Assembly (NCBI GenBank): GCA_049642465.1
Contig: JBAROV010000039.1
Location: 5,567-69,566 of the forward strand
Length of the DNA: 64,000 nt
Source: Vicinamibacterales bacterium
Lineage (GTDB): Bacteria; Acidobacteriota; Vicinamibacteria; Vicinamibacterales; 2-12-FULL-66-21
Reading direction: 5' to 3'
The notes beneath the pieces are model-generated. The model was not told the DNA's origin. It saw only the letters and a list, made by a program, of their open reading frames with translations, and did not search any database. The position numbers and the translations under genes were made by a program. Below are positions 8,242 to 49,359 of the stretch, piece after piece (position 1 is the first letter of the stretch; each line of letters opens with the position of its first letter).

Positions 8242-8243
8242 GT

Positions 8244-8444
8244 TCAGCACCTTCTCGAATCGACCTTCGGCTCGCTCTGGCCACGCTGCGCCGTGGCGCA
8301 CTCGTCGTGGTGATCCAGCAGCACGCGCATGGCAGGGGTGCACGTGTCGTCAAATTGCCCCGACCTGACGGCCCAGACGAACGCGCCCAGAAACCCGGCG
8401 GCCACGAGTCCTCCTGCCACGATGAGCAGCACGATGACACTCAT
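8244..8444 (-). CDS. ccoS: cbb3 oxidase maturation protein CcoS/FixS
   Basis: MSVIVLLIVAGGLVAAGFLGAFVWAVRSGQFDD matches the CcoS signature. The start is internal to the track ORF 8244..8609 and forms an ATGA overlap with the ccoI stop (8441-8444). Confidence 0.85.
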   Translation of the reverse strand: MSVIVLLIVAGGLVAAGFLGAFVWAVRSGQFDDTCTPAMRVLLDHHDECATAQRGQSEPKVDSRRC

Positions 8445-31260: not shown

Positions 31261-31294
31261 GAACACCTCGCCACGAGACGGTGACGTTAGCACG

Positions 31295-31403
31295 AAAAAG
31301 GGGACTGTCCCCTTTTCCCAAAACCGGACACTTCGGGAAAATGGGGACAGTCCCCCTTTTTCAAGAGTGTCCGATTTCGCAAAAGGGGGACTGTCCCCTT
31401 TTT
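31295..31403. repeat. Composite palindromic element made of three A-tract/GGGGAC(T/A)GTCCCC/T-tract hairpins
   Basis: Hairpins at 31295-31316, 31338-31361 (core inverted) and 31381-31403. Spacers CCGGACAC and GTGTCCG are mutually inverted. Confidence 0.8.
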
Positions 31404-31448
31404 CCGGCAGACAGCCGATCTGGTAGCCTACGCCCGGAGAATGACCCC

Positions 31449-34298
31449 ATGAGCCAACCCGTCCGCGCGACGGCGCGGGTCGCCGTCGCCGCCATGCTCT
31501 TGATCTGCACCCGCGGGGATCTCTCGAGCCAGGCCCAGCCGACCGCCACTCCCGACCGCGAATACATGCTGGAAACCACGATTCTCGGCTACCGGGGGGT
31601 CGGCGGAGAGATCGACGGCGTTCGCAATCCGACCTTGTGGGCCCGGACCGGCGACATGGTCCGCATCACCATCGTCAACGGTGAGCTGATGGTCCATGAC
31701 ATCGTCATCGAGAAGCTCGACGTGCGGAGCACGCAGATCCTCGACAAAGGGGCCAAGACGAGCATCACCTTCAAGGCGACGCAGAGCGATACCTACTTCT
31801 GTTCGCTGCCCGGCCACAGGGTCGCCGGAATGGAGGGGCGGATCGACGTTTCCGACACACCGCGGACGCAGCCCGAAGGCGAGCCGCCGATGTCAGACGG
31901 CCGGGCACTCGATCTGGATTTCGAGAACGGCACGCTCGAGAACTGGACGGCCACGGGCGATGCATTCGAGGTGATGAAAGTGGACGCTTCGTCCGAGACG
32001 GCGCAGCGTCGGAACGGTCATTTCGGTTCCTACTGGGTGACGAGCGGCCTGCGCGGCGGATCGCGGCGCGGGGTGCTCTCGTCGGTGCCGTTCCGCGTGA
32101 CCAAGCCGTACGCGAGCTTTCTCGTGTCAGGCGGCGCATTCTCCAGCACGCGCGTCGAACTGGTCACCGCCGCAGACAAGAGGGTCATCTACACGATCTC
32201 AGGCGCCGATCAGGCGACGCTGCGACCCGCGATCGTCGATTTGAGCGCCTACGTGGGAAAGGACATCTTCGTCCGCCTCGTGGACGAGGATACGGGAATG
32301 TCCACGGCGGCCTACATCCGCGAGAATCCATGGGCGCACATCAACTTCGATCACTTCCGTTTCCACGAGACGAAGCCAACGTTCGTCAACGAGATCGCAC
32401 CTGCTGACATCAACGCCATGCCGCCGATCGACCCGGTGCTGCACGCGGGATTGTCGGCATCCGAAGCGGCGAAAGCGATGACGGTGGCGAAGGGGTTCAC
32501 CGTGAAGCTTGCCGCGTCCGAACCGGACGTGGTTCGGCCGATCGGTTTCACGCTGGACGATCGGGGCCGGCTCTGGGTTGCCGAGGCACACACATATCCG
32601 ACACGCGCCGCTGAAGGCGAGGGGAAAGACCGCATTCTCATCCTCGAAGACACGGATGGCGATGGACGCCTGGACAAACGCAAGGTCTTCATCGAGGGCC
32701 TCAACCTCGTCAGCGGAATCGAGGTGGGCTTCGGTGGCGTCTGGATTGGCGCCGCGCCAAACCTCTTGTTCATCCCTGTGAAAGATGGAACGGACGTGCC
32801 CGCTGGTCCGCCGCAAGTCCTGCTCGACGGTTGGGGGTATCAGGACACGCACGAAACGCTCAACACATTTACCTGGGGACCCGATGGCTGGCTCTACGGC
32901 ACGCACGGCGTGTTCACGCACTCAAACGTCGGCAAACCGGGAGCGCCAGACTCAGAACGCCAGCGGCTGAACGCGGGCATCTGGCGTTATCACCCGACGA
33001 AGCACGCGTTCGAGGTGTTTGCTGAAGGGACGAGTAATCCGTGGGGACTCGATTTCAACGATTACGGCCACGCGTTCACGACGGCGTGCGTCATCGAGCA
33101 CCTCTACCACGTCGTTCAAGGCGCGCGCTACAAGCGGCAGGCGGGCAAGCATTTCAACCCGTACATCTACGACGACATCAAGACCATTGCAGACCACGTG
33201 CATTGGGTTGGAAAGAAAGGCCCACATGCGGGCAACGCGCGTTCGGGTTCGGCAGGCGGTGGTCACGCCCATGCGGGCGCGATGATCTATCTCGGCGGCG
33301 ACAACTGGCCGCGCGAATATCGCAATTCAATCTTCATGAACAACATCCACGGGAATCGGGCGAACACCGATCTGCTGAGGCGTGCCGGTTCGGGCTACAC
33401 GGCAACGCACGGACCGGATTTTCTGCTCACCAATGACTCGTGGAGCCAGATGCTCAACTTCCGCTACGGGCCAGACGGTTCCGTCCACGTCATCGACTGG
33501 TACGACAAGAACCAATGCCACAGCACCAATCTGGAAATCCATCAGAAGACGCTCGGACGCATCTTCAAGATCAGCCATCAGCGAGACAAATGGGTCCAGG
33601 TCGACCTGAAGAAGTTGTCATCCGAAGCACTGGTCGATCTTCAACTCAATCGCAACGACTGGTACGTGCGCCATGCGCGCCGGATTCTGCATGAGCGAGG
33701 GCCCAATCCGAAGGTCCATGCACAGTTGAGGGTCATCCTCCGCGACAACCCCGACGTGACCCGCAAGCTGCGCGCGCTTTGGGCGCTGTATGTCACGAAC
33801 GGATTAACTCAATCGGACATGCTCGAGCTGCTCGGTCACGAGAGTGAGTACCTGCGCAGCTGGGGCGTGTATCTGCTCGTGCAGGACCAGCAGCCGTCGG
33901 AGGAAGCGGTCCGTCGCTTCGCGGCACTTGCGCGGCAGGATGCGTCACCGCTGGTACGGCTCTATCTCGCGAGCGCGCTGCAGCGAGTGCCGGTCGAGAG
34001 ACGCTGGGACGTCATCACGGCTCTCCTGACCCACGACGAGGATCGCTTGGACCATAACCTTCCGATGATGGTGTGGTACGCCGCCGAGCCGCTGGCGGCG
34101 GGCGACAAGGCCCGCGCGCTGACACTCGCGCTCGACGCGAAGATGCCACGCCTGTTTCCGTTCACCGTGCAGCGAATCGCCGCGTTGCAGACGCAGGATG
34201 CGCTGCGCGTCCTTGCCGAGCAACTCGCGCGCACGACTGATGCAGCGCAACAAACGGAGCTGGTGAACGGGATCAATCTAGCCGTGAAGAAGAAGTGA
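31449..34298 (+). CDS. Secreted multidomain protein: type-1 copper cupredoxin + beta-sandwich + PVC-type 'membrane-bound dehydrogenase' beta-propeller domain + HEAT repeats
   Basis: Signal peptide (MSQPVRATARVAVAAMLLIC). Cupredoxin ligand pattern H83...C118-x4-H123-x4-M128 (VHDIVI...YFCSLPGHRVAGMEGRIDV). Dehydrogenase-domain signature (GFTVKLAASEPDVVRPIGFTLDDRGRLWVAE...ILEDTDGDG). C-terminal HEAT-like repeats. Start moved to ATG 31449, because the track extension reads through a repeat element. Confidence 0.8.
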   Translation: MSQPVRATARVAVAAMLLICTRGDLSSQAQPTATPDREYMLETTILGYRGVGGEIDGVRNPTLWARTGDMVRITIVNGELMVHDIVIEKLDVRSTQILDKGAKTSITFKATQSDTYFCSLPGHRVAGMEGRIDVSDTPRTQPEGEPPMSDGRALDLDFENGTLENWTATGDAFEVMKVDASSETAQRRNGHFGSYWVTSGLRGGSRRGVLSSVPFRVTKPYASFLVSGGAFSSTRVELVTAADKRVIYTISGADQATLRPAIVDLSAYVGKDIFVRLVDEDTGMSTAAYIRENPWAHINFDHFRFHETKPTFVNEIAPADINAMPPIDPVLHAGLSASEAAKAMTVAKGFTVKLAASEPDVVRPIGFTLDDRGRLWVAEAHTYPTRAAEGEGKDRILILEDTDGDGRLDKRKVFIEGLNLVSGIEVGFGGVWIGAAPNLLFIPVKDGTDVPAGPPQVLLDGWGYQDTHETLNTFTWGPDGWLYGTHGVFTHSNVGKPGAPDSERQRLNAGIWRYHPTKHAFEVFAEGTSNPWGLDFNDYGHAFTTACVIEHLYHVVQGARYKRQAGKHFNPYIYDDIKTIADHVHWVGKKGPHAGNARSGSAGGGHAHAGAMIYLGGDNWPREYRNSIFMNNIHGNRANTDLLRRAGSGYTATHGPDFLLTNDSWSQMLNFRYGPDGSVHVIDWYDKNQCHSTNLEIHQKTLGRIFKISHQRDKWVQVDLKKLSSEALVDLQLNRNDWYVRHARRILHERGPNPKVHAQLRVILRDNPDVTRKLRALWALYVTNGLTQSDMLELLGHESEYLRSWGVYLLVQDQQPSEEAVRRFAALARQDASPLVRLYLASALQRVPVERRWDVITALLTHDEDRLDHNLPMMVWYAAEPLAAGDKARALTLALDAKMPRLFPFTVQRIAALQTQDALRVLAEQLARTTDAAQQTELVNGINLAVKKK

Positions 34299-35038
34299 TG
34301 ACGTCACAGTCGAAGCGGATGGTCGTGCTCGGGTTACTCGTGGTGTCGCTGGCGCTGCTGCTCCCGGGTATTCTTGCGCCGGTCCTCACGATCCGGGGCG
34401 TGCTGACGCGCGAGGGTGTCGCGCATGTCGCGCCGATGATGCTGGAGCGGGGCCTGAGCGATGAGACGATCGCGACCCTGAAATCAATGATGAACCCCGC
34501 CATCGTGTCGTTCCTGAACGCGACCGGCGGCGATCTGCGCAAGATCATCCTCGAGAGGCTGAGCCCCCAGATCACCGCGTCGCTGCAGAAAAACGTCAGC
34601 GAGGTGCCCATCTACGAGCAGACACGCAGCATCCTGGGGTCGGTCAGGCGACTCTATGAAGTAGGCAGTCCCGTGCCGGCGACACTGATTCTGCTCTTCA
34701 GCGTGATCGTGCCCTTCGGGAAAGCCACGCTGGTCGCGTGGACCGTGTTCATGGTCAACGAAGGCAGGCGTCTCCGCACGCTCCGGTTCGTGGAAGCGAT
34801 CGCAAAGTGGTCGATGGCCGACGTGTTCGTCGTCGCGCTCTTCATCGCCTACCTCGCCGCACAGGCGAGCCAGACGGCGGCCAGCGATCCCAACGCGGCG
34901 CCGCCGCTCATCGCCTTCACGGCCCACTTTGGACCAGGCTTCTACTGGTTCACCGCGTACTGCATCTTCTCACTGGCGTCCCAGCAGTACACGCGAAGGT
35001 TGGCATCGCGAGCGCAAGACGTCGCGCCGGCGGCTTGA
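34295..35038 (+). CDS. PqiA-family (paraquat-inducible protein A-like) membrane protein, single repeat
   Basis: LILLFSVIVPFGKA...FVEAIAKWSMADVFVVALFIAYL is the PqiA signature. The start (GTG 34295 or ATG 34298) overlaps the stop of the upstream gene. Confidence 0.6.
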   Translation: MMTSQSKRMVVLGLLVVSLALLLPGILAPVLTIRGVLTREGVAHVAPMMLERGLSDETIATLKSMMNPAIVSFLNATGGDLRKIILERLSPQITASLQKNVSEVPIYEQTRSILGSVRRLYEVGSPVPATLILLFSVIVPFGKATLVAWTVFMVNEGRRLRTLRFVEAIAKWSMADVFVVALFIAYLAAQASQTAASDPNAAPPLIAFTAHFGPGFYWFTAYCIFSLASQQYTRRLASRAQDVAPAA

Positions 35039-35774
35039 GTGTCTGTTCCTTCACATACGGCCGCAGCTCCGGAACCACCTCTTGCAGCGCATCGACCACG
35101 AACTGCGCGACCACCGCGCTTCCCTTGCCGTTCAGATGGGTGCGATCGACTTGCCCCTTGTCGTCGCGCGGACTCAAATCCGCCCACACATCGTCGCCCG
35201 TCTGCTCCGCGTCGTCTTTGCTGATCGCGTGTAGATCCACAAGCGGGACGTTCTTTTCCTTTGCCAATGCCCGGACGGCCTCGACGTACGGGGTTTGCGT
35301 CGTCCTGATGGATCCATCCTCGTTGTAGATCCGGCGGACCAGTGAGGTGACAAGGATCGGCTTCGCGCCGATGGCGCGCGCCTCGTCCACATAGCGAGAC
35401 ATGTAGGTACGAAACGTGGTCGCCGGATCCGTTTCGCGCTCCGGACCCTTTCCCGGTTCGTCGTTGTGCCCGAACTGAATCAAGTAGTACTGGCCCTTCT
35501 TGCCCAGCGCCTCCGTCCAGCGTCCCTCGTCGATGAAACTCTTCGAACTGCGTCCGCCGGCTGATTCATTGATGACTTCGACCTTGTCGGTGACGAGCTG
35601 ACGAAATCCTGCACCCCACCCCGCTTCGTCCGTGACCGTCGAGTCGCCGACGAGGACGATGCGGGTAGCGGCCGGGAGTGGACCTTGGGCCCTTAGGAAG
35701 GCCGGCACCGGCGTAATGAGCAGAACGATGAAAAGCGAGATAAACCGCGAATGTCCGTCAGGTGGAAATCTCAT
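34950..35774 (-). CDS. SGNH/GDSL hydrolase (rhamnogalacturonan acetylesterase-like), secreted
   Basis: Signal peptide. Block I IVLVGDSTV. Block V DRTHLNGKG (DxxH). Confidence 0.75.
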   Translation of the reverse strand: MRFPPDGHSRFISLFIVLLITPVPAFLRAQGPLPAATRIVLVGDSTVTDEAGWGAGFRQLVTDKVEVINESAGGRSSKSFIDEGRWTEALGKKGQYYLIQFGHNDEPGKGPERETDPATTFRTYMSRYVDEARAIGAKPILVTSLVRRIYNEDGSIRTTQTPYVEAVRALAKEKNVPLVDLHAISKDDAEQTGDDVWADLSPRDDKGQVDRTHLNGKGSAVVAQFVVDALQEVVPELRPYVKEQTLKPPARRLALAMPTFACTAGTPVRRCSTR

Positions 35775-35813: not shown

Positions 35814-36626
35814 TCATGCCGGCCGCGCGATGCCGGCATCGGAAATTGCGGTGCCCAACTCGCGCGCTTCACGCTCGTCAGGGAGGCGGTGAGCGAAGGG
35901 CGGGTCGACGGCCGTACACACAACCGTCTGCGCAAATGCTTCCGACGCGCGAAAGTCGATCCGGAACCCGGCCGTCTGGAGCAGCGACATCAAGCAACTT
36001 GGACTGAGGCCCCAAAACCAATTGCCGTACCCTTCGTGCGGCTGGAATTCATTGCTGATGCCCGATTGATGCTGGACGCCGAGGCTCCTCAGGTTCCACA
36101 GCTGGCGACCGTTCTCGTTGAGCATCGGATAATAGACCGCCGCGTTGGGCAACCCTCGCACTTCCGGGATCGTGGAGCTGCGGAGGATTAGCGTTTCACA
36201 GCAGATTCGTCGCAGGGCGCTGAGCAGATTGAACGGACTGGGGTGATGGTAGAGCACGCCGGCGCAGAACACGACGTCAACGATGCCGACGCGCGAGATC
36301 GTGTCAGTTTGCACGATATCGCCAAGGATGAATTCCACTCGCGATGAGCGTGTTCGCTTTTTCTCGAGAAATTCAGGCGTGGGCCCGAAGACGTCGACAG
36401 CTTTCACGCTCGACGCGCCCGCCGCTTCAGCAAGGAACGCGTACTCGCCGTTGACACCCCACATGCAGCCGATATCTGCAAAGGACTTTCCGGGCGCGTG
36501 CCTGCGGATGTATTCGGGAAGTCGATCGTAGGAACCGATGATGTCGCCGCGTCGCGCACGCCAGCCGCGCCACCACAGGTTGACGCGTGGGATTTTCAGG
36601 GCCCGGACTTTCCAGCGGTACAGCAC
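35814..36626 (-). CDS. Putative class I SAM-dependent methyltransferase
   Basis: FADIGCMWGVNG (motif I-like) ... VKAVDVF ... VDVVFCAGVLYH. Last gene of the 43662-35814 operon. Confidence 0.6.
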   Translation of the reverse strand: MLYRWKVRALKIPRVNLWWRGWRARRGDIIGSYDRLPEYIRRHAPGKSFADIGCMWGVNGEYAFLAEAAGASSVKAVDVFGPTPEFLEKKRTRSSRVEFILGDIVQTDTISRVGIVDVVFCAGVLYHHPSPFNLLSALRRICCETLILRSSTIPEVRGLPNAAVYYPMLNENGRQLWNLRSLGVQHQSGISNEFQPHEGYGNWFWGLSPSCLMSLLQTAGFRIDFRASEAFAQTVVCTAVDPPFAHRLPDEREARELGTAISDAGIARPA

Positions 36627-36633
36627 GCGTCGT

Positions 36634-37851
36634 TTACTCCGTCATCCCGGCAATCCCAAGATAACTGAACACGAGCAACGTCGCGACGAGTAGCGCGTTG
36701 ACGGCCCAGCCGTTCCGAAGCTGACCAACCCACCTGCGCCGGTTGTTCATAATAAGCAACGTAACGGCCAAAAGCGGGAGAAATGCCGCGCCGACAGTCG
36801 CGTAGATCAGTTGGATCGTCCGCACGGGGGCCCACAGCCAGATGAGCGAAATCACGGCAAGCGCAAGGAGATACCCGCGATATTCCGGGCGCTCATCGAC
36901 GTCTCCCAGTGCCGGCCGTGCGGCGGCTGGCGATCGGCGGAGAGCAAGAAAGTCGGCAAACAAGTACGGCGTGCTTTGCCAGACGCCCAGCACGCTCGAA
37001 AACACCGCGCCCCAGAAGCCAAGCAGAAACGCGCCCCGTCCGATCGGCCCGAGCACCGATCCAATCTGTGCCGCGATATCCAGAGCGACTCCCGCTCCCC
37101 TGCCGCTGATTGAAATGCGCGAACCAATGACGATCATCGACACGCCGAAGAGCGCGGTCATCGCATAGCCGACGCCAAGATCGACTCGACACTCAATGAG
37201 TCCGCTGCGACCCGATCGCTTGCGATCTGCGATCCAGTAGCCGTAGGAGAGAAGCGTCACCGTTCCGCCGACGCCGCCGAGCACCGCCAGCGCCCAGCGG
37301 CTGAGAGCCATCGGCGCGGAGACCGCGTCCAGTACCGGCGCAGGAGACCCGGCGAGCATGGCAGCCGTGACGATCACGCCGGCGACCATCACCGCGACGC
37401 ACAGCCCCATGGCCCCTTCAAACCACTTGAACCCGCCGCGAACAACGATGACGACGGCGAGCAGGGAGTGCACGACGCCCCAGACGATCTTCGAGGTGTT
37501 GGCATCGCCGATCGGAAACAAGCTCGCGCCGGCGACGCCGCAGGCGTTCACCAGCGCACCGCCGACGACGAAGCTCCAGAGAAGAAAATAGACGAGGAAC
37601 GCCCACTGGACGATCGGATGCAGGCGAAGGATCCAGCCTTCGAGGAGCGTCGTGCCAGTGGCCATCTGCCAGCGCGCGATGCCTTCGTTCAGCGTCCACT
37701 TCAGCAGAGCGCCAACGACAGCAGCCCAGGCGACGATGACGCCAACTTCAGAGCCGGCAAGGCTGGCGGTGATGAGATCGCCGGCGCCGACACCGGTCGC
37801 GGCAATCAACAGGCCGGGACCGAGCGTCGACAGCGCGAGGCGCGGAGCCAC
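36634..37851 (-). CDS. Divergent Nramp-family transporter (canonical metal-site motifs absent)
   Basis: Nramp-like TM1 region LGPGLLIAATGVGAGDLITAS and about 11 TM helices. GVGAGD replaces the canonical DPGN. No MPH motif is seen in the TM6-equivalent region. Confidence 0.7.
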   Translation of the reverse strand: MAPRLALSTLGPGLLIAATGVGAGDLITASLAGSEVGVIVAWAAVVGALLKWTLNEGIARWQMATGTTLLEGWILRLHPIVQWAFLVYFLLWSFVVGGALVNACGVAGASLFPIGDANTSKIVWGVVHSLLAVVIVVRGGFKWFEGAMGLCVAVMVAGVIVTAAMLAGSPAPVLDAVSAPMALSRWALAVLGGVGGTVTLLSYGYWIADRKRSGRSGLIECRVDLGVGYAMTALFGVSMIVIGSRISISGRGAGVALDIAAQIGSVLGPIGRGAFLLGFWGAVFSSVLGVWQSTPYLFADFLALRRSPAAARPALGDVDERPEYRGYLLALAVISLIWLWAPVRTIQLIYATVGAAFLPLLAVTLLIMNNRRRWVGQLRNGWAVNALLVATLLVFSYLGIAGMTE

Positions 37852-37852
37852 C

Positions 37853-39211
37853 TCAGATGCGCGAGGGTTGCGGCGCGGTCTTCGCTAACTGCGATGCGTG
37901 GGTCTGGACCTTTCTGATCGCCTCGGCGATGTCGTCCATATCCTTCTTCGGCCCGAGCAGCATGGTCTGCGTCAGCCATACCGCTTCCGAGCAGAGACGG
38001 TCGTTCTGCGGACACTGGCTTTGCTCGCGCCATGAATCGAGGCGCGCCCTTGGGTACACGCCCTGAAGCCCCGGACGCGACAGCGCAGCCAGTATGAACG
38101 GTTCCTTGTTGAGCGGCGAGTAACCGCCAGAGGCGGGGATACCTTCGGCGCTGAGCGCTTTCAGGAACGATGGGCGCGGAAGTCCCGAGAACGAGGCGGA
38201 GTCGTAGCGGAACATATATAGATGATAGGCATTGCGCGTGCAGCCCTCGTACATCCGCGCCGGTCTGATGCCGGGAATCTGCTTCAGCAGGCTCGTGAGG
38301 TACGCGGCGTTCTGCTCACGGGTGCGCGACTGCTCTTCGAGCCGCGTCATCTGCGCCAGCAGCAACGCCGCCTGAAACTCCGTCATCCGTAAATTCGCGC
38401 CGGTGCTCTGGTAGGAAAAGTCGGCACCAGTATTTCTGCGGCCGCGGCTGTTATTGTGGAATCGGTAGCAGGCTTCGAGAAGCGCATCGTCATCCGTCAG
38501 GATCGCGCCTCCCTCGCCGGAGTTCAGGTTCTTGCTTGCCTGAAAACTGAAGCATCCGGTTCGACCGTACGTCCCAACCTTGCGGCCGCGCCATTCAGCC
38601 AGATGCGACTGACAGGCGTCTTCAACCACGGTCACGTTGCGCTTCTTCGCAATACCGAGAATCGTGTCGAGATCCGCAGCCGCCCCGCCAAGGTGCACGG
38701 GAAGAATCGCGCGGGTCCTCTCGGTGATGGCCTGTTCGACCTTGTGCGCATCGATCTGGAACGTCTCGATGTCGCTGTCCACGAACACCGGCATCGCGTG
38801 CATCAGGAGGACGGCGTTGATCGTGGCAATGAACGTGTACGGCGGGACGATGACTTCGTCTCCGGGCCCGATGCCAAGCGCCGAGAGCGACGTGATGAGC
38901 GCGCTCGTGCCGTTGGCTGTCGCGAGGCAACCCCTGGCGCCCGTCAGCTTGGCGTAGGCCGTTTCGAACGCCGTCACGTTCTGTCCGCGAAACCACTTGC
39001 CGCTGCGGACCAGATCGACGAGCGCCTTCTCTTCGCGCGCGTCGGCGACCGGCCAGGACGGAAATGGCTGGCGACGGACGGGTGCGCCGCCGAGGATCGC
39101 GGCGCTCGCCTGCGTGGTGCGCAGGCGCCCCTGTGAAGGACGCGCAGCAGCCAACGTGCCGCCGGCCACGACGGTTCCGATGAACTTGCGACGGGTGAGC
39201 TGTTTCTTCAC
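37853..39211 (-). CDS. DegT/DnrJ/EryC1/StrS-family PLP aminotransferase with twin-arginine signal
   Basis: [23 protein letters not shown] Tat motif. PLP-Lys region [16 protein letters not shown]. Overall DegT pattern. Confidence 0.85.
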
Positions 39212-39250
39212 GATGGCTCCCTCGAGGTGCTTCCGCCTGCACGCGGACGA

Positions 39251-40618
39251 TCACGCTCTCGACATCAACTCTCGGACCTTACCCACGATCAGTTCTTCGA
39301 CTTCTTCAGTGAACGGGCCCGGGCGGCCGTAGTAGATCATCGCGTCTGCGCCCTCGTAACCGCCTTCGCGCAACACGCGAAGAGACGGCACGTAGCCAAA
39401 GACGTCGTTGCTATAGCCAGCGACCCACATCGTCTCGTTCTTGTTTTCGCCGGCCAGCCGCAGCGCGTAGTCGACAACGACTTCCCCGCCGAGGGCAACC
39501 ATGGTGAAATTTCCCTTCGACTCGCCAGCGGCACCGGCGCGCTCGCTCAGGGCAGGCCCAAACCGCCACACCTGCACAGGGTCCGGCTGCTTCGTCGGCA
39601 ATGGGCCCTGTCGCGCCATCAACGCATCGTAACGCTGGAGATATACCGAGTCCACTTTCAGTTGCTGCTTCCAGCGCTCGCGCGCGTCGGAACCGACGAA
39701 CGGTAGATCGACGGTGCCATACGAGGTGCGCAGCGACGAAGCAATGGCTGTCGCTGAGGGGAGTGCGCGGTCGACCGCGTCAGCGAGCGCGACGCCATGC
39801 GACTGAACAAGCTCGGGCGTCCCGCGCGGGCTTGGATTGGCATCAGCGCCGCAGCCTGCCACGAAGAGCGCCGTGGCGCCTTGATGTCGCTTTTCTAGCT
39901 CGGCCTGCGCGACACCGGCGTAATCCCCGTGGTATTGCACGAAGGCGTCGCCCAGCGTGGTGTTGTGGCACGCGTAGCCGAAGACCATCGCGACAGGCGT
40001 ACCGTTCGCATTGTCGATCCGGAGAATCGGTACCGAATGATCGACCGGTCCGAGCGGCTTGAAACTCACGCGCCGATTCGCGGCAAACGTTGCCTCGCCG
40101 CGCGAGTAACCGACACGGGCAGGGGCCAACCGCTTCAATGCTTCGCTCACGACAGCGATCAGCTGCTCCTCGAGTTTTTCGGAGTACGACCGGATGTCAG
40201 CCCATTGCTCCGGTGTGAGGTCATAGGCGACTGAAAGCTGTTCGTCGACGACCGGGCCGCAGTGCGTGTGGCTGGCGTTGAAAAGCAGATCCGCTCGCCG
40301 AATGCGATGCTGCTGTTGCAGGGCGGCCGAGACGCGATCCGTGATCCGTGCCGTGAGGCCGAGCAAATCCGTGGTGACCAGCACCACTGGATTGCCCGTG
40401 CCCGCCTGCAGCGCGAGCGCCTTTGCGTGGAGCGGTAGCGAGACACCCTGCGACGCCTGCTTGCGGCGCGCAAAGCCAGCCATCCACAGCGAGCGGTCGG
40501 GCGTGATGTTGATGGTCGCGACGCCGGCCTTCCAGGCAGGAGACCGCTGGGGCCTGATCAGAAATGCCGGTGCCACTGCCCCAGCAACAATGCTGCCGAG
40601 AAACGTGCGGCGATCCAT
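39251..40618 (-). CDS. Neutral/alkaline ceramidase N-terminal-domain-like hydrolase with twin-arginine signal
   Basis: MDRRTFLGSIVAGAVAPAF Tat motif. AGVATINITPD...WMAGFA...LHAKALAL...NASHTHCGP resembles the ceramidase_alk N-domain. Confidence 0.7.
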   Translation of the reverse strand: MDRRTFLGSIVAGAVAPAFLIRPQRSPAWKAGVATINITPDRSLWMAGFARRKQASQGVSLPLHAKALALQAGTGNPVVLVTTDLLGLTARITDRVSAALQQQHRIRRADLLFNASHTHCGPVVDEQLSVAYDLTPEQWADIRSYSEKLEEQLIAVVSEALKRLAPARVGYSRGEATFAANRRVSFKPLGPVDHSVPILRIDNANGTPVAMVFGYACHNTTLGDAFVQYHGDYAGVAQAELEKRHQGATALFVAGCGADANPSPRGTPELVQSHGVALADAVDRALPSATAIASSLRTSYGTVDLPFVGSDARERWKQQLKVDSVYLQRYDALMARQGPLPTKQPDPVQVWRFGPALSERAGAAGESKGNFTMVALGGEVVVDYALRLAGENKNETMWVAGYSNDVFGYVPSLRVLREGGYEGADAMIYYGRPGPFTEEVEELIVGKVRELMSRA

Positions 40619-40620
40619 GG

Positions 40621-43600
40621 TTATTGTCTCCCCACAATGAACTGCAGCAGATCGGCCATGTCTTGCTGCGACAATCCATCCTCGAGTCCTTCGGGCATCA
40701 TCGACTGCTCGAGACTCTTGATCCCCACGATGTTCGCCCGCTGCACCACGACAGGCTGGGCAAACGGCGGCCGCAGGGTCACGCTGATCTGCGTCTCGTT
40801 CTGCATGATGCCACTGAGGCTGCTGCCGTCCTTCAGTTCGACAAGATACAGTCGGTATCGAGCCTCCACCGTGCGATTCGGCTCGACGATGTGGGTCAGA
40901 ATCTCTTCCCGGTTCCAGCTCTTCACGGTCGTCAAGCTCGGGGCCACGACGTTGCCGTCGCTGCCGGGATCATGGCAGACCGCGCATCGCGCCTTGTAGG
41001 TTGACTGTCCTCTCAGGTCGCTGCCGCGGAGATCGAGAGCCGGCCGGTATCGTTCGATGACAGCGCGTCGATCGCCGGCCGCGGCACGGCTGAACAGTGG
41101 CGCTGCAGCCTCGCGCACCTCTTGATTCCGATGCGCCATCAGGAATGCCGTCTGCGTCGGCGTCAGCTCGTTGCGCAGCACCAGTCCGGACGCGATCGCC
41201 TTGACCAACGCCATGGCGCGTTCGGGACGCGCCAGCAGCACAGGAAGAAGCTCGCGGCGCTGGAGCGGCGTGAAACGCGACCAGCGTTGAATGATTCCAC
41301 CGGCGAGATCCGGGCGATCAAGCCTGTTCAATGCACCGAGGGCGGCGGACTGCACGGCCCGAGCCTCGTTGGTCGTCAGCAGCGTCCTCAGAGTCGCTGA
41401 CAGATCGGAGGTCGGCGACGTCAGGCCCAGCAGCTCAATCGCCTGCACGCGTGTCGATTCGACTGCCTTTGGATCCCTGACGGTTGTCAGCGCGTGATCG
41501 ATGAGCGGCTGCAATCTCGATTGAAACAGTGCCAGTGGAACATCGGCGCGCTGAAGGCCATCAGCAAATCCGGAGAGATACGCAAACGCGAGTCGCCGAT
41601 CCTTGACGGAATCGAGAAAGCCGAGCGCCGCGAGCAACTCGCGCCCCTTGTTGCGGCTGCCGATAACGCGCAGCAAGTCTCGCAGGAAGGTCTGACCGGA
41701 CGAAGACGCCGTCAGTGTGGCGTCAGAGGCAAGCCGTGAGAATACCTCGCCAGTGCCCTCCGCAAGCGAGGTCAGGACCGCGACGTGCATCCACGACTGG
41801 TCGACGTCCCGCTTCAGGAGTTCCGCGAGGGCGGAATTGCGATCGGGATGGGACAGTTCGCCGAGCGTGAATGCCGTCTGATATCGCACGCGCGCATCCT
41901 GATCGTCTACCCGTGCTCGCACCTGCCGCCAGAGCGCTTCGGATAGGTGCGCAGCAAACCTCTCCGACAGGCGGACGGCGTGTTCGCGAACGCCGGCTTC
42001 GGGATCCGCAAGCCCGCGGAGCACATCTGATTCGGACAGCGCGTCGAGACCCTCGAGCGCGTAGAGGGCGTGCAGACGACCCATCGCAGAAGAGGACTCC
42101 TCGAGCAAGCGCACGAGAGCGGGAATTGCGGACTTGTCCTGGCGTTCGTAGAGCAAGCGGGCCGCGGTTTCGCGGTGCCACGCGTTGGTGTGCGCCAGCG
42201 TGGCGACGAGTTCTGCCGTGGTGAGCCGACCAAGCCTCACGGGAGCAGGTCGACGGAATCGGTCTGGAACGATCCGATAGATCCGACCGCGATCGTTGCC
42301 GCGGTTCAGATCCTTGACGCGCTTGATCGATTCGGGGATGCCGTCTGAAAAGTCGAGAATCTCGCGATAGAGATCCGCCACATACAGCGCGCCGTCCGGT
42401 CCATTGGCGAACGCGACGGGTCGAAACCAGAGGTCGGTGGACGCGAGAAACTCTTCACTCGTCTCATCGGCCGCTCGCCTCGCGCGAAGCCCGACACCGC
42501 TGGTCGTGAGCGTACGATGGTGGACGAGGTTGTTGCCGGCCACTCCGACAAACGCGCTGTGCCGGTAGTCGGGAGGAAACGCGTCGCCGCGATAGAGCGT
42601 GACGCCGCTCGAGGCGATGAGGTACGCGGGCGGCTGCGGCGGCGGTCCGGCGAACACGCCTTCGGCACGCCACCGGTTCCGGATGCGACGCCAGGGATCT
42701 TCGGGGCTGATGCGATGGACCAGTTGCCGGTCATTCGTCTCGCCCTGGTCGAGCGCGATATCGATGCGCGCCGGCGGCGGTGAATAGTTGGGGTTCCGTC
42801 CGGCATAGCGATCTTCGTACATCAACATCTGCACCGCGTTCGTTTGCGTGCAGACGAACTTGCGTCCGTAGTCGTCAAAGCTCAGGCCCTGCTTGCCGCC
42901 TCCACTCTCGGCGCGCAGGCGGTGGCTACGCGGATCGAACGAGAAATCACGTCCACGAAGATCGAGCGGCGGCTCGCCGGTGGCGGCGACGGACACGATC
43001 GTGCCGCCGTGCCCCTTCGCTCCGTGAATGCGGTTGTCCAGACTCCACGTCAGGCTGTTCATGAACATCTGACTGTCGAGACGGTCTCGCTGATTGCCGA
43101 ACCCGGTGAACACCACCTGACGGATGTCTGCCACACCGTCGCCGTTGATGTCCTTCATATAGAGGAGATCTGGCTCCAGCCCGACGTAGACGCCGCCGTT
43201 GTAAGGAAACACGGCCGACGGATACCGCAGCTTGTCCGCGAAGATCGTGCTCTTCTCGAATGTGCCGTCGCCGTTCGAGTCCTCGAGGAGACGAATGCGT
43301 CCAATGCGTTCGTCGAACATCAGGTCGGTGCGCGTTTCGGATTGATACCAGCGCATCTCGACGACATAGAGGCGGCCGTCCTCGTCAAACGCGAGCTGGA
43401 TGGGATCGACGACGAGTGGTTCATGCGCGACGAGCTCGAGGCGGAAGCCTTGCTTGATGCGAAACGTCTCGAGCGCGTGCTCGGGTTCGACCGGCGGAAT
43501 GTCAGGGATATCGCGGGGATCGACTTCGAGGCCGAGAGAGATGTCGGTTTCGCGTGGATTGAGATACCTGTCGCGCGTCTCCGTACCGGCCGGCGGCTTC

Positions 43601-43662
43601 TGCTGGCTTTGTGCGGCGGCCACAGCCCCCGCCAGCAACAGCAGCGCTCCGATGGTTCGCAT
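40621..43662 (-). CDS. PVC-type dehydrogenase domain + HEAT repeats + C-terminal monoheme cytochrome c protein
   Basis: Sec signal (MRTIGALLLLAGAVAAAQS). Dehydrogenase signature (GFRLELVAHEPLVVDPIQLAFDEDGRLYVVE...LEDSNGDG). HEAT repeats. CAVCH at nt 40972-40986 in the heme-binding tail. Confidence 0.85.
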   Translation of the reverse strand: MRTIGALLLLAGAVAAAQSQQKPPAGTETRDRYLNPRETDISLGLEVDPRDIPDIPPVEPEHALETFRIKQGFRLELVAHEPLVVDPIQLAFDEDGRLYVVEMRWYQSETRTDLMFDERIGRIRLLEDSNGDGTFEKSTIFADKLRYPSAVFPYNGGVYVGLEPDLLYMKDINGDGVADIRQVVFTGFGNQRDRLDSQMFMNSLTWSLDNRIHGAKGHGGTIVSVAATGEPPLDLRGRDFSFDPRSHRLRAESGGGKQGLSFDDYGRKFVCTQTNAVQMLMYEDRYAGRNPNYSPPPARIDIALDQGETNDRQLVHRISPEDPWRRIRNRWRAEGVFAGPPPQPPAYLIASSGVTLYRGDAFPPDYRHSAFVGVAGNNLVHHRTLTTSGVGLRARRAADETSEEFLASTDLWFRPVAFANGPDGALYVADLYREILDFSDGIPESIKRVKDLNRGNDRGRIYRIVPDRFRRPAPVRLGRLTTAELVATLAHTNAWHRETAARLLYERQDKSAIPALVRLLEESSSAMGRLHALYALEGLDALSESDVLRGLADPEAGVREHAVRLSERFAAHLSEALWRQVRARVDDQDARVRYQTAFTLGELSHPDRNSALAELLKRDVDQSWMHVAVLTSLAEGTGEVFSRLASDATLTASSSGQTFLRDLLRVIGSRNKGRELLAALGFLDSVKDRRLAFAYLSGFADGLQRADVPLALFQSRLQPLIDHALTTVRDPKAVESTRVQAIELLGLTSPTSDLSATLRTLLTTNEARAVQSAALGALNRLDRPDLAGGIIQRWSRFTPLQRRELLPVLLARPERAMALVKAIASGLVLRNELTPTQTAFLMAHRNQEVREAAAPLFSRAAAGDRRAVIERYRPALDLRGSDLRGQSTYKARCAVCHDPGSDGNVVAPSLTTVKSWNREEILTHIVEPNRTVEARYRLYLVELKDGSSLSGIMQNETQISVTLRPPFAQPVVVQRANIVGIKSLEQSMMPEGLEDGLSQQDMADLLQFIVGRQ

Positions 43663-43840
43663 GGATGGCGGCAGTCTACCGCTGCATGCGGACTGGCGTC
43701 GAGCAGCAAGCGCTGAACACGCCGACGGCTCTCACGACGACACGACGCAGGACGCTGGCACGCCCCGACCGGGCAATCACGAAGGGCCTCTGTCTGCGAC
43801 TGTCGCTGCAGCTACTCTCGTCCGACGGTCGCTCGAAGAC

Positions 43841-43869
43841 TTGACATTCGGCCCGACGACTGTCATACT
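43841..43869 (+). promoter_or_regulatory. Sigma70-like promoter TTGACA-17 nt-CATACT for the gntR-ABC operon
   Basis: TTGACA at 43841-43846, a 17-nt spacer, and CATACT at 43864-43869. This is 16 nt before ATG 43885, implying a very short leader. Confidence 0.5.
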
Positions 43870-43882
43870 GTCATATGACAGT
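43867..43882. promoter_or_regulatory. Perfect 16-bp palindrome ACTGTCATATGACAGT (candidate YtrA/GntR operator)
   Basis: Overlaps the -10 element and ends 2 nt before the gntR ATG. An extra half-site copy ACTGTCAT lies immediately upstream (43859-43866). Confidence 0.55.
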
Positions 43883-43884
43883 CA

Positions 43885-44289
43885 ATGCTATTCCAACTGA
43901 ACTTCAAGTCCGGCAAAGCGGTCTACCTCCAGCTGGTGGACCAGGTGAAGGTCGCGGCAGCGTCGGGAGCCGTGCAGCCCGGCGACCCCCTCCCCGGCAT
44001 CCGGCCGCTCGCCGAGCAACTGCGCGTGAACCGGAACACGGTGGCGAAAGCGTACGCGGAGCTTGAAAGCCAGGGCGTAATCGAAACCGTCGCCGGTAAA
44101 GGCTGCTTCGTTCGGCCGAACAGCTCCCCGTTCCGGAAGGATGTCCGTCGCAAGCTGCTCGCCGAAACGATAGACGAAGCCGTCGTCCACGCACATCACC
44201 TTCAGATCGGAAAAACGGATTTCCTGCGGCTGGCCGAGGAACGCTTCGACGCGCTCGAAGACAAGCGGGCCCGCGCCGCGCAGTCATGA
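43885..44289 (+). CDS. GntR-family transcriptional regulator, YtrA subfamily
   Basis: 134 aa. Winged HTH PGDPLPGIRPLAEQLRVNRNTVAKAYAELESQGVIETVAGKGCFV with a short C-terminal extension. 4-nt overlap with the downstream ABC ATPase. Confidence 0.85.
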   Translation: MLFQLNFKSGKAVYLQLVDQVKVAAASGAVQPGDPLPGIRPLAEQLRVNRNTVAKAYAELESQGVIETVAGKGCFVRPNSSPFRKDVRRKLLAETIDEAVVHAHHLQIGKTDFLRLAEERFDALEDKRARAAQS

Positions 44290-46702: not shown

Positions 46703-49300
46703 TTGATCTTCCCCTCCCCGGCTCCCGATAATTCGGCGTACGTGCGTACGAATCTTGCCGCCCTGCTTGTCTTCCTGCTCGCTCTCCTGGGCTCGGCCCA
46801 GCGGGAGAACGTGGTGCGCGCGGCCGCAAACAGCGGTCAGCAGTCAACGCGTGCTTCGCGTCAACCGGTCCACGCCTCGCCCGCCGAAGGCTTCGAAACC
46901 GTCGTCAAGCCGTTTCTCGCGCGCCACTGCTACGAGTGCCACGGGAATAAAGGAGAACCCGAGAAGGGGCTGAACCTTCAGTCGTTCGAGTCAGTCGCGT
47001 CGCTGGTCGAACATCGCGACCGCTGGGACATGGTCGTCGAGAAGCTGCGTGGAAGCGAGATGCCGCCTCTCGAGGAAGAACAGCCGCCGGAAGAACGTCG
47101 CCAGGCGGTCGCCACGTGGCTCGCGAACGAGTTGGATCGAATCGACCGCACGACGCCGCCCGATCCCGGTCGCGTCACCGCGCGGCGCCTCAATCGCAAC
47201 GAATACAACAACACGGTACGAGAGCTCCTCGGCGTAGACATTCGCCCCGCCGACGACTTCCCGCAAGACGACTCCGGCTACGGCTTCGACAACATCGGCG
47301 ACGTGCTGTCGCTCTCTCCGGCGTTGATGGAGAAGTACATGACGGCCGCCGACCGCGTCGCCCGGCGCGCCGTGTTCGGTCCTGCAAAGATGGAAGCGAC
47401 GCTGACACGATTGCGATCGGACGGCCGGCGTGTCAAGGAGAACCGGACCGTTCCTGAGCACTACGACGTCACCGGTTTGAGCCTGCCGAACGCGTTTCAC
47501 TCGATTCATCGCATCCCGGTGGATGGCGAATATGCGCTGCGCGTCACGCTTGGTGGGGTTCGACCAAAAGGCTCGGAACCAGTCACGGTGTCGTTGTGGA
47601 TCGATCAGAAAGAAGTGAAGTCCGCTGTGCACGATCCGGAGCGATCGGCGACCTTCTCCGACGATCGGCAGGACTTTGGCGGCCAGACGCTCGAGTTCCG
47701 CGTCAACCTGAAAGCTGGAGATCGATGGATCGCCGTCGCAATTCCACGGATTTACGAAGGCCTCCCCCTCCGATACGCGGGGCCGAATCCGTCGAAACGG
47801 CCACCGCCTCCCGCGCCGCAATTCAGACCGCCACCCAATGCCACGCCCGAACGCATCGAGCAGGCGCGCAAGCGGTTCGAGGAGACGCTGGCGGAACTCG
47901 AGAAGCTGCCGATCAACGGCGTTCGCGTCAACGCGCTGGACTTCGCAGGTCCTTACTCCTACGCGAAGGGTCCGTCTGTCGAGAGCGTCGCGAAGGTCTA
48001 TACGTGCGGACACCGCAATGGCGCGCACCAGAACTGGTGCACCGCGCGAATCATCGGCAGCCTCGCCAGGCGCGCATTCCGCCGGCCTGTTCCCGCGGCC
48101 GAGGTGAAACCGTTCGTCGATCTCGCGCGGCGCGCGCAGGAAGAAGAACAATCGTTCGAGGAAGGACTCGTGGTCGGAATCCAGGCTCTGCTCGTATCGC
48201 CTGACTTCCTGTTCCGAATCGAGCGCAACCGTCCGGGTGTCGCCTCGCATCAGATCACGCAGCACGAACTGGCGACGCGGCTGTCCTACTTCATCTGGGC
48301 GAGCATGCCGGATGCTGCACTCCGTCGTGCCGCCGACGCGGGGACGCTGCGACAGCCTCAAGTCCTCGCGGCACAGGTCCGCCGCATGCTGCGCGACCCG
48401 AAATCGCGCGCGTTGGCCGAGCACTTCGGCGGCCAGTGGCTGCAGTTCCGCGCACTCGAATCAGTGACACGCGATCGCGAACGCTTCCCCGACTTCGAAG
48501 ACTATCTGCGACTGTCGATGCGGCGCGAAACCGAGCTCTTCTTCGAGCACATCGTCCGTGATGACCGGAGCATCCTGGACTTCCTCGACGCGCAGTACTC
48601 GTACGTAAACGAACGGCTGGCCAAACATTACGGACTCATTGGAGTGACCGGCCCGGAGTTCCGAAAAGTGGATTTGAGCGGATCGCCTCGACGGGGTGTG
48701 GTCACCCAGGGCAGCGTGCTGACTGTTTCGTCCTATGCGACCCGCACGTCACCGGTCCTGCGCGGCAAATGGATTCTCGAAAACCTGCTCAACGCGCCGC
48801 CTCCAGAACCGCCGGCCGATGTCCCGAACCTGGATGAGACGACGATCGGCACAACCGCCACGATGCGCGAGCAGCTCGAGGAACACCGCAAGAACCCCAC
48901 CTGCGCCTCCTGCCACCGGCGGATGGATCCGCTGGGTTTTGGCCTCGAAAACTTCGACGCCGTGGGCGCATGGCGGACGATGGACGGAAAATTCCCGGTG
49001 GACGCTTCCGGGACCCTGCCCGATGGACGGTCGTTTTCCGGCCCCGAGGAGCTGGCAACCATCCTCAAGGGGGACCGGGAGGCTTTCGGCCGAGCCATTA
49101 CGTCCAAGCTCCTGACCTATGCCCTGGGAAGGGGTCTGGAGCGTTATGATAATCAGACGGTCAGGCGCATCGCGAGCCGGCTGCCGCGATACGAGTACCG
49201 CTTTTCGGGCCTGGTGCTGGAGATAGCCAGGAGCCTGCCGTTCCAGTCACGGCGCGTCACTGAACGGACAGTCGCTTCGAGTCAGCGGCCCGAGCGATAG
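46703..49300 (+). CDS. DUF1592/DUF1595/DUF1588/DUF1587/DUF1585-type protein with N-terminal CxxCH (planctomycete cytochrome-like)
   Basis: CYECHG heme motif near the N-terminus and a second CASCHRRMDPLGFGLENFD motif near the C-terminus. Characteristic architecture. The true start may be GTG 46742 (MRTNLAALLVFLLALLGSAQ). Confidence 0.8.
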   Translation: MIFPSPAPDNSAYVRTNLAALLVFLLALLGSAQRENVVRAAANSGQQSTRASRQPVHASPAEGFETVVKPFLARHCYECHGNKGEPEKGLNLQSFESVASLVEHRDRWDMVVEKLRGSEMPPLEEEQPPEERRQAVATWLANELDRIDRTTPPDPGRVTARRLNRNEYNNTVRELLGVDIRPADDFPQDDSGYGFDNIGDVLSLSPALMEKYMTAADRVARRAVFGPAKMEATLTRLRSDGRRVKENRTVPEHYDVTGLSLPNAFHSIHRIPVDGEYALRVTLGGVRPKGSEPVTVSLWIDQKEVKSAVHDPERSATFSDDRQDFGGQTLEFRVNLKAGDRWIAVAIPRIYEGLPLRYAGPNPSKRPPPPAPQFRPPPNATPERIEQARKRFEETLAELEKLPINGVRVNALDFAGPYSYAKGPSVESVAKVYTCGHRNGAHQNWCTARIIGSLARRAFRRPVPAAEVKPFVDLARRAQEEEQSFEEGLVVGIQALLVSPDFLFRIERNRPGVASHQITQHELATRLSYFIWASMPDAALRRAADAGTLRQPQVLAAQVRRMLRDPKSRALAEHFGGQWLQFRALESVTRDRERFPDFEDYLRLSMRRETELFFEHIVRDDRSILDFLDAQYSYVNERLAKHYGLIGVTGPEFRKVDLSGSPRRGVVTQGSVLTVSSYATRTSPVLRGKWILENLLNAPPPEPPADVPNLDETTIGTTATMREQLEEHRKNPTCASCHRRMDPLGFGLENFDAVGAWRTMDGKFPVDASGTLPDGRSFSGPEELATILKGDREAFGRAITSKLLTYALGRGLERYDNQTVRRIASRLPRYEYRFSGLVLEIARSLPFQSRRVTERTVASSQRPER

Positions 49301-49313
49301 CGAGGGCTGGCAG

Positions 49314-49337
49314 GTCGTGGGGGTGGGGCCCCACGAC
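49314..49337 (+). other. Intercistronic GC-rich hairpin GTCGTGGGG-GTGGGG-CCCCACGAC between the DUF1592 and DUF1552 genes
   Basis: 9-bp perfect stem read directly. Begins 14 nt after stop 49300 and ends 22 nt before start 49360. Confidence 0.4.
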
Positions 49338-49359
49338 AAATCAATAAAAGAGAGGGCAA

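Follow-up and report, generated by a model that had tools for sequence, protein, structure and literature searches.

What do five closely packed genes for predicted exported enzymes, a membrane transporter, and a methyltransferase do together, and do they form a single pathway? We addressed this question for a 64,000-nt stretch of a soil acidobacterium, a Vicinamibacterales bacterium (contig JBAROV010000039.1, positions 5,567 to 69,566; the whole stretch is called the window here), in which an earlier, sequence-only reading had described a compact five-gene operon for a candidate periplasmic pathway. A six-frame list of open reading frames (ORFs) confirmed the reported layout, with five minus-strand ORFs at 40621-43662, 39251-40618, 37853-39211, 36634-37851, and 35814-36626, separated by gaps of 2, 39, 1, and 7 nt. 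They encode, in this order, a haem-binding protein (gene 1, referred to as the cytochrome protein), a ceramidase-fold hydrolase (CerL), a DegT-family aminotransferase (DegT), an Nramp-like transporter, and a methyltransferase. The string of five stood as described, but a sixth co-directional gene, encoding an exported SGNH/GDSL esterase (34950-35774), had been overlooked; it starts again 39 nt past the methyltransferase gene. No terminator-like site was found inside any intergenic gap of the string, such sites were fewer in the region than in shuffled sequence, and CerL and DegT each have a plausible ribosome-binding site ahead of the start codon; the string is probably co-transcribed. The conserved unit that we propose is not a five-gene pathway. 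It would be an extracytoplasmic enzyme module built around CerL, with the SGNH esterase, DegT, and the cytochrome protein, for an amino-sugar-like substrate, and we give this proposal an even chance of being right.

The gene arrangement was compared across genomes in a profile scan limited to one genome per species, which yielded at least 573 stretches encoding CerL; 80 loci were retained, and 78 of them were analysed. In about 23 of these, the gene immediately following CerL, in the same orientation, was DegT. Most of these loci are from Vicinamibacteria, Terriglobia, and other Acidobacteriota, with some from Planctomycetota, and the median distance between the two genes was about 21 nt in a crude ORF-based cluster analysis. 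The pair was also present in both metagenome contexts of DegT homologues that were examined. A Gfo/Idh/MocA oxidoreductase with a twin-arginine translocation (Tat) signal was found near CerL in 9 loci. The close relatives showed four arrangements of the string genes. Two (L003 and L004) had that of the window; an 89%-identical relative (L085) had CerL-DegT-Nramp-methyltransferase-GDSL, with the cytochrome protein separated from CerL by approximately 9.4 kb; another contig had cytochrome protein-CerL-DegT-GDSL, without the Nramp-like gene or the methyltransferase; and L086, syntenic at 77-92% identity, had ABC-GntR, CerL-DegT-GDSL, and PqiA-DUF7133b, and lacked the cytochrome protein, the Nramp-like gene, and the methyltransferase. 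CerL, DegT, and GDSL were therefore kept in close relatives while the other genes varied. Co-conservation of the five genes as a set, an expectation of the sequence-only reading, was rejected by the 78 CerL loci and by L085 and L086. What survived of the proposed single pathway was the link among CerL, DegT, and the cytochrome protein, seen in adjacency and gene fusions; the Nramp-like and methyltransferase genes dropped out of it.

Several loci carried additional genes around CerL. The insert between the cytochrome protein and CerL in L085 (615-9869) encodes a Y_Y_Y/HisKA_3 sensor kinase, a GerE response regulator, cohesin-like and Lcl_C proteins, and a 1307-aa CBM96 protein. In a locus from Sedimentisphaerales (L043, 10001-15708), two Tat-type DegT paralogues, 51-53% identical to the DegT of the window, stand in tandem after CerL, and the opposite strand carries another, divergent CerL-like gene. 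On a 1.4-Mb contig (L001), reached through a DegT homologue with relatives named Vicinamibacterales, a GNAT N-acetyltransferase gene (8115-8576) stands 20 nt upstream of CerL-DegT; it may be an acylation counterpart to the putative deacylase.

CerL (39251-40618, minus strand, 455 aa) is a predicted zinc hydrolase with a Tat signal, and its earlier description as a ceramidase_alk-like hydrolase was borne out by a match to the N-terminal Ceramidase_alk domain (PF04734) at 60.5 bits against a Pfam cut-off of 32.1. No match to the C-terminal ceramidase domain was found in Pfam, the protein ending at residue 455, and against the NCBIfam ceramidase_neut equivalog it scored 32 bits, far below the cut-off of 1200. 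An AlphaFold2 model made from a 79-sequence alignment had a pLDDT of 92.9 and replaced an earlier one made from 17 close homologues (pLDDT 57.5). In a Foldseek search with the model, only neutral ceramidases were significant in the PDB (2ZWS, 2ZXC, and 4WGK; probability 1.0, TMq 0.68-0.71, 14-17% identity), and a profile search of PDB sequences returned the same two ceramidase families and nothing else. Among 79 homologues of 35-89% identity, residues H117, H119, H218, E379, Y409, and Y421 were invariant and N181 and R182 nearly so. These residues align with the HxH (HTH), NR, H, GE, and Y motifs of 2ZWS and 4WGK, and we take them, from published ceramidase structures, to be the zinc-binding and catalytic residues. 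The predicted structure, suggested earlier as a check on the assignment, thus has a neutral-ceramidase fold with the catalytic residue set complete, and CerL appears to be an active-looking member of the superfamily and not an orthologue of the known ceramidases. With Pseudomonas aeruginosa CerN (2ZWS/2ZXC) and human ASAH2 (4WGK), it has in common the fold of the catalytic domain, the HxH/NR/H/E/Y/Y set, and secretion or export, which for CerL is a prediction. It differs from them in size (CerN and ASAH2 have 630-690 aa), in the absence of the C-terminal domain, in the low identity, in the Tat signal of its clade, where neutral ceramidases have a Sec signal, and in its genomic and fusion partners, which are carbohydrate-active. 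The family is large, with 12,329 clusters at E≤1e-3 in an exhaustive HMMER search.

DegT (37853-39211, minus strand, 452 aa) is a DegT/DnrJ/EryC1-family aminotransferase dependent on pyridoxal 5'-phosphate (PLP), as the sequence-only reading had it: PF01041 matched with an E value of 1.4e-98 and 330.9 bits against a cut-off of 19.8. The Schiff-base lysine (Lys227, in FQASK) and the PLP-binding Asp198 are kept and align with those of RbmB (PDB 5W70). Its nearest solved relatives, matched over nearly the full length with E values of 1e-65 to 1e-63, are 2-deoxy-scyllo-inosose aminotransferases (5W70 and 2C7T) and 3-amino-5-hydroxybenzoic acid (AHBA) synthase (1B9H), while it falls well below the NCBIfam equivalog cut-offs for the aminotransferases of nucleoside diphosphate (NDP)-sugars (WecE, PseC, ArnB, LegC, DesI, and RfbH; e.g., 208 versus 375 and 206 versus 423). 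The principal substrates of 2-deoxy-scyllo-inosose aminotransferases and of AHBA synthase carry no nucleotide, which suits a compartment without NDP-sugars. These relatives share the catalytic lysine and the PLP-binding aspartate with the DegT of the window, but they are cytoplasmic, biosynthetic enzymes of antibiotic clusters, whereas the latter has an N-terminal Tat extension of about 35 residues and adjoins hydrolases.

The twin-arginine motifs that had been noticed in both proteins are present and conserved. The N terminus of CerL reads MDRRTFLGSIVAGAVAPAF, with DRRTFLG at residues 2-8 (RRTFLG, 3-8) followed by SIVAGAVAPAF, and DegT has TRRKFIG at residues 6-12 (RRKFIG, 7-12), within the extension, which has no counterpart in cytoplasmic relatives. 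Both motifs precede a moderately hydrophobic stretch and match the S/T-R-R-x-F-L-x pattern. They were kept in 117 of 120 DegT homologues and 115 of 120 CerL homologues, the exceptions being N-terminally truncated. Among more distant representatives of the CerL family, the motif was found in only 9 of 67, which argues that the Tat signal is specific to the CerL clade of the window. CerL::cytochrome fusion proteins carry Sec-type signals, as expected for c-type cytochromes, and a twin arginine was present in 1 of 27. Adjacency of DegT tracked the motif of CerL, being seen in 17 of 27 loci with the motif and 7 of 53 without it, in a comparison based on crude motif detection and on loci that are phylogenetically non-independent. 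PtaA and PvdN belong to an aminotransferase fold class other than DegT. Both are Tat-exported PLP transaminases, established as such experimentally (PMC6206403), and export of a folded PLP enzyme through Tat is thus not in itself exceptional. The likeness to pyoverdine maturation lies in a folded, PLP-loaded transaminase passing through Tat and acting in the periplasm, export being a prediction for the DegT of the window; the difference is that PtaA and PvdN tailor a siderophore side chain and that no ceramidase-like partner has been described for them.

The cytochrome protein (40621-43662, minus strand, 1013 aa) was assigned from Pfam and NCBIfam models and its CxxCH motif as a PVC-type haem-binding protein. 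It has a Sec-type signal (residues 1-18), a DUF7133 beta-propeller (60-466; Pfam E value, 5e-110), HEAT repeats (about 483-604), and a mono-haem cytochrome c domain (884-1009) with CAVCH at residue 893 and SMMPEG at 987. Both TIGR02604 (273.7 bits; cut-off, 122.2) and TIGR02603 (107.1 bits; cut-off, 68.15) matched above cut-off, in agreement with the architecture of beta-propeller, HEAT, and CAVCH cytochrome c read earlier from the sequence. The name dehydrogenase given to it is an annotation label, the sole assayed protein of this architecture, Lac161_ORF7 (AGW45552; TIGR02604-HEAT-cytochrome c), having hydrolysed lactose, with a Km of 1.8 mM (PMC5342196). That protein, which shares the three-domain architecture with gene 1, was assayed for lactose hydrolysis only, and neither a role of its haem domain nor a CerL or DegT partner was described (PMC5342196). 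No solved relative of the DUF7133 domain was found in the PDB by single-sequence or profile searches, and the match to PF07995 (GSDH) inside DUF7133 was sub-threshold (E value, 0.0047; 16.7 bits versus a cut-off of 25). As far as domain content goes, the haem domain is the only direct sign of a redox function. A second DUF7133 protein is encoded in the window at 31281-34298 on the plus strand (1005 aa, 27% identity to gene 1; syntenic in L085 and L086). It has a plastocyanin/azurin-like copper-binding match in place of the cytochrome c domain, and its stop codon overlaps the start of a PqiA-like gene by 4 nt.

The connection between CerL and gene 1 emerged from fusion proteins. CerL was fused, in both orders, to a full or partial DUF7133-HEAT-cytochrome c protein in 31 of the 149 family clusters (50% identity) closest to it, and these partners aligned with almost all of gene 1 at 29-35% identity. 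This argues for a real functional link behind the 2-nt spacing of gene 1 and CerL in the window, although adjacency of the two genes is itself not widely conserved. One such fusion (P0374) is also held in RefSeq as WP_210653111.1, named for Gemmata and located on an 8.3-Mb contig. The contexts of two genes for these fusions contained no consistent extra partner. Further partners were sought in 34 CerL proteins of more than 600 aa. Esterases were represented by GDSL proteins (twice, P0445 and P0463), AXE1/DLH/glucuronoyl-esterase-like/BD-FAE hydrolases (five times), and a sialate-type acetylesterase (SASA), and glycan-active or related domains by GH16, GH5, 3-keto-disaccharide hydrolase (DUF1080, twice), ThuA, a pectate-lyase-like beta-helix, an SMP-30/gluconolactonase-like domain, dockerin, and GT2. 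The remaining partners were RidA (three times), HEAT (twice), a beta-lactamase fold (twice), M23 with PKD, and GDPD, and in 8 of the 34 proteins no extra domain was recognisable. TIGR02604, DUF1080, and Gfo/Idh/MocA are three families that have been listed as putative glycoside hydrolases outside CAZy so far (PMC7397252). CerL is fused elsewhere to DUF1080 and to ThuA and occurs near genes for Tat-type Gfo/Idh/MocA proteins, and the bias of its fusion partners, notably towards this group (PMC7397252), points to carbohydrate processing. Tandem CerL-CerL fusions of about 880-905 aa were found in 7 clusters (P0361, P0362, and five others); they suggest that CerL may act as a dimer or as paired units of two specificities.

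The SGNH/GDSL esterase (34950-35774, minus strand, 274 aa) has a Sec-type signal and GDST, the block I motif, at residue 43, and it matched PF13472 with 59.4 bits against a cut-off of 32.9. Its gene directly follows that for DegT in close relatives, and on gene order it is part of the conserved core. Over its last 89 nt, the gene runs into the convergent PqiA-like gene (34295-35038, plus strand), whose 3' end it overlaps.

In the mechanism that we propose for the module, CerL would act in the periplasm as a zinc amidohydrolase, removing the N-acyl group from an amino sugar, an amino glycoside, or a similar amino-polyol, and the SGNH esterase would strip O-acyl groups from the same substrate. 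On this substrate, which would be free of nucleotide, DegT would then turn the freed amine into a ketone or work in the opposite direction. The same sugar-like skeleton would be acted on, probably oxidatively, by the DUF7133-HEAT-cytochrome c protein, whose haem domain would relay electrons to the respiratory chain. What each step does chemically, the class of substrate, and the order and direction of the steps are all proposals. In a broader form, CerL would represent a large family of exported ceramidase-fold carbohydrate N-deacylases of carbohydrate-esterase type, which, with the Tat-type DegT and the DUF7133-cytochrome c protein, would make up a new periplasmic pathway of amino-sugar or amino-polyol deacylation and deamination that feeds the respiratory chain in soil Acidobacteriota and Planctomycetota; we put this forward tentatively, as a possibility that falls well short of being likely.

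A number of observations weigh against the proposed module. In about 55 of the 78 CerL loci there was no adjacent DegT, a PVC-type protein was adjacent to CerL in none of the 78, and the loci are phylogenetically non-independent. The link between CerL and the cytochrome protein comes from fusions in more distant, Sec-type members of the family (twin arginine in 1 of 27), some of which stem from metagenome gene calls and could be artefacts. Dehydrogenase activity of gene 1 is unproven, since DUF7133 lacks a solved relative and the GSDH match is sub-threshold. The substrate assigned to the CerL clade and to the Tat-type DegT is a prediction from family and context. A periplasmic transaminase, moreover, needs a keto acid or amino donor as co-substrate, and none is evident here; the same question has been raised for PtaA (PMC6206403).

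We therefore weighed the proposed module against other explanations. One is that the locus serves catabolism and detoxification of sphingolipids or ceramides, CerL being a true ceramidase that frees a sphingoid base (a 2-amino-1,3-diol), which DegT deaminates and the cytochrome-linked protein oxidises. Neutral ceramidases are the only structural and sequence relatives of CerL, which keeps all their catalytic residues, the substrates of the solved enzymes most closely related to DegT resemble amino-polyols, and one CerL fusion contains a GDPD phosphodiesterase domain. A comparable assembly is known from P. aeruginosa, where the SphR regulon comprises a secreted ceramidase (CerN), a Tat-exported oxidoreductase (SphC), a periplasmic cytochrome c (SphB), and a predicted PLP enzyme (SphD) (PMC11893366). 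A hydrolase of ceramidase fold, an oxidoreductase, a c-type cytochrome, and a PLP enzyme thus come together outside the cytoplasm in that system (PMC11893366), and these four functional types are also combined, as judged from the genes, in the window. Apart from the ceramidase fold, however, the likeness ends at the level of types: SphC is a predicted FMN-linked oxidoreductase and SphD a predicted PLP aldolase, functions that differ from those predicted for the proteins of the window, cerN lies outside the sphBCD operon, and the substrate is a sphingoid base. CerL itself lacks the C-terminal domain and scores 32 bits against an equivalog cut-off of 1200, its fusion partners are mostly carbohydrate-active and not lipid-active, and no gene for lipid binding or lipid transport is conserved nearby. 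We consider a sphingolipid function unlikely.

It is also conceivable that there is no shared pathway and that exported enzymes which are common in these genomes, and each of which acts on its own, were brought together in the string by rearrangement as a mosaic. Gene content indeed differs between close relatives, the Nramp-like and methyltransferase genes occur in unrelated contexts elsewhere, and DUF7133 proteins are abundant, with the second one only 6 kb away in the window. Such a mosaic fits the two inserted genes but not the core, as the recurrent CerL-DegT adjacency in two phyla and the 31 independent CerL::cytochrome fusion clusters are hard to attribute to chance, and for the string as a whole we find it improbable.

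A further explanation is an oxidative amino-sugar route without transamination, a sub-variant of the proposed module and not independent of it. CerL would deacetylate an N-acetyl hexosamine, the cytochrome protein would oxidise C1 to a lactone or aminoaldonate, and DegT would be an eliminating deaminase, similar to glucosaminate ammonia-lyase, that needs no keto acid, by which the problem of a periplasmic co-substrate is avoided. AHBA synthase, one of the closest solved relatives of DegT, is a DegT-fold enzyme that performs eliminations. CerL fusions to a gluconolactonase-like SGL domain and, in three clusters, to RidA imine/enamine deaminases would suit such a route, as would the weak similarity to GSDH (aldose dehydrogenase) within DUF7133. 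That similarity is, however, below threshold, DegT keeps the standard aminotransferase lysine and has no lyase-specific feature, and no SGL or RidA gene is present in the cluster of the window; the route is, in our estimate, quite improbable.

The combination of a dehydrogenase with a DegT enzyme is the classical logic of amino-sugar biosynthesis (NtdC/NtdA, GnnA/GnnB, WbpB/WbpE), and it fits a role in tailoring of the envelope or an exopolymer, in which the cytochrome-linked enzyme would oxidise a hydroxyl of a periplasmic glycan or lipid, DegT would aminate the ketone, CerL would run in reverse or remodel N-acyl groups, and the SGNH esterase would edit O-acetylation. One CerL fusion to a GT2 glycosyltransferase and the service of the periplasmic PLP enzymes PtaA and PvdN in maturation of a secreted product agree with this role, but it is very unlikely, as genes for a glycosyltransferase, a flippase, or a polymerase are not conserved around CerL-DegT, the periplasm would have to supply an amino donor, and the partners are mostly degradative (esterases, GH5, GH16, and 3-keto-disaccharide hydrolase).

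The literature search found no characterised pathway of the composition described in the sequence-only reading, nor any description of a Tat-type DegT, a CerL-type protein, or their association, although its coverage was incomplete and this is weak evidence. The parts come from known superfamilies, and periplasmic cytochrome-linked catabolism and Tat-exported PLP enzymes are already known kinds. CerL-like and Tat-type DegT proteins are nevertheless very common in soil metagenomes, where word-index searches gave at least about 7,900-8,000 close clusters for each, annotated only as neutral ceramidase or perosamine synthetase, labels that are probably wrong. Should N-acylated amino sugars or glycosides prove to be the substrates of the module, it would represent a new family of carbohydrate-turnover enzymes in Acidobacteriota and Planctomycetota, offer a first way into the function of the abundant DUF7133-HEAT-cytochrome c proteins, and extend Tat-exported PLP chemistry beyond pyoverdine maturation.

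The two genes outside the proposed module encode an Nramp-related membrane transporter of the LeuT fold (36634-37851, minus strand, 405 aa) and a class I S-adenosylmethionine (SAM)-dependent methyltransferase-like protein without a signal peptide (35814-36626, minus strand, 270 aa). The transporter matched Pfam Nramp with 64.6 bits, and both the Pfam and NCBIfam Nramp models were above their cut-offs. When it was aligned by hhalign with Escherichia coli MntH, the DPGN motif of transmembrane helix (TM) 1 was found to be replaced by GAGD and the MPH region of TM6 by TLLSY, both invariant in the subfamily, which upholds the view that it is an Nramp-fold protein lacking the canonical metal site. 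It thus shares the family match with the Nramp/MntH divalent-metal transporters and differs from them in the metal-coordinating motifs. A sequence search of the PDB returned no solved Nramp, only spurious low-complexity matches to retroviral protease. In the wider subfamily (4,040 clusters at E≤1e-5), the invariant motifs GVGAGD and GGVGGTVTLLSYGYW take the place of the metal-binding sites, and its universal annotation as Mn2+/Fe2+ transporters is probably wrong. For the last gene, the family named earlier stands, with only weak matches to class I SAM methyltransferases.

Both genes are scattered elsewhere. None of the 78 CerL-centred genome loci contained the Nramp-like gene or the methyltransferase, and the Nramp-like gene was also missing from each of the 80 loci centred on methyltransferase homologues. 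The 80 metagenome loci, with methyltransferase homologues of 62-77% identity, contained none of the other string genes, and the three Nramp-homologue contexts examined held unrelated neighbours and none of the string's other genes. A mobile Nramp-methyltransferase pair was considered and rejected, the gene beside a 75%-identical Nramp homologue being unrelated to the methyltransferase and the 80 methyltransferase loci having no Nramp homologue. By this distribution the two genes are recent lineage-specific insertions; they are probably co-transcribed with the string, and no functional link to the core was found in gene contexts beyond the closest relatives. For annotation, the lesson is that tight spacing alone overstated the pathway, two of its five genes being such predicted insertions.

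A 222-nt intergenic region (43663-43884) separates the minus-strand cytochrome gene from a divergent, plus-strand GntR(YtrA-like)-ABC-permease operon, and by position it presumably holds the promoter of the module. No minus-strand promoter consensus was found in 43663-43884, and a plus-strand sigma-70-like site is present at 43841-43869. Overlapping this site, just 5' of the GntR(YtrA-like) start codon at 43885, ACTGTCAT is repeated in tandem at 43858-43883 and also makes a perfect inverted repeat (GACTGTCATA / TATGACAGTC). The repeat is a candidate operator, and the divergent module might be affected by it too. Farther along the plus strand, at 46703-50706, the window encodes a Planctomycete-type PSCyt/PSD multi-domain cytochrome protein (DUF1592, DUF1588, DUF1587, DUF1585, and DUF1595) and, after it, a DUF1552 (HXXSHH) protein; such pairs are typical of PVC-like genomes, and this one is in an acidobacterial window.

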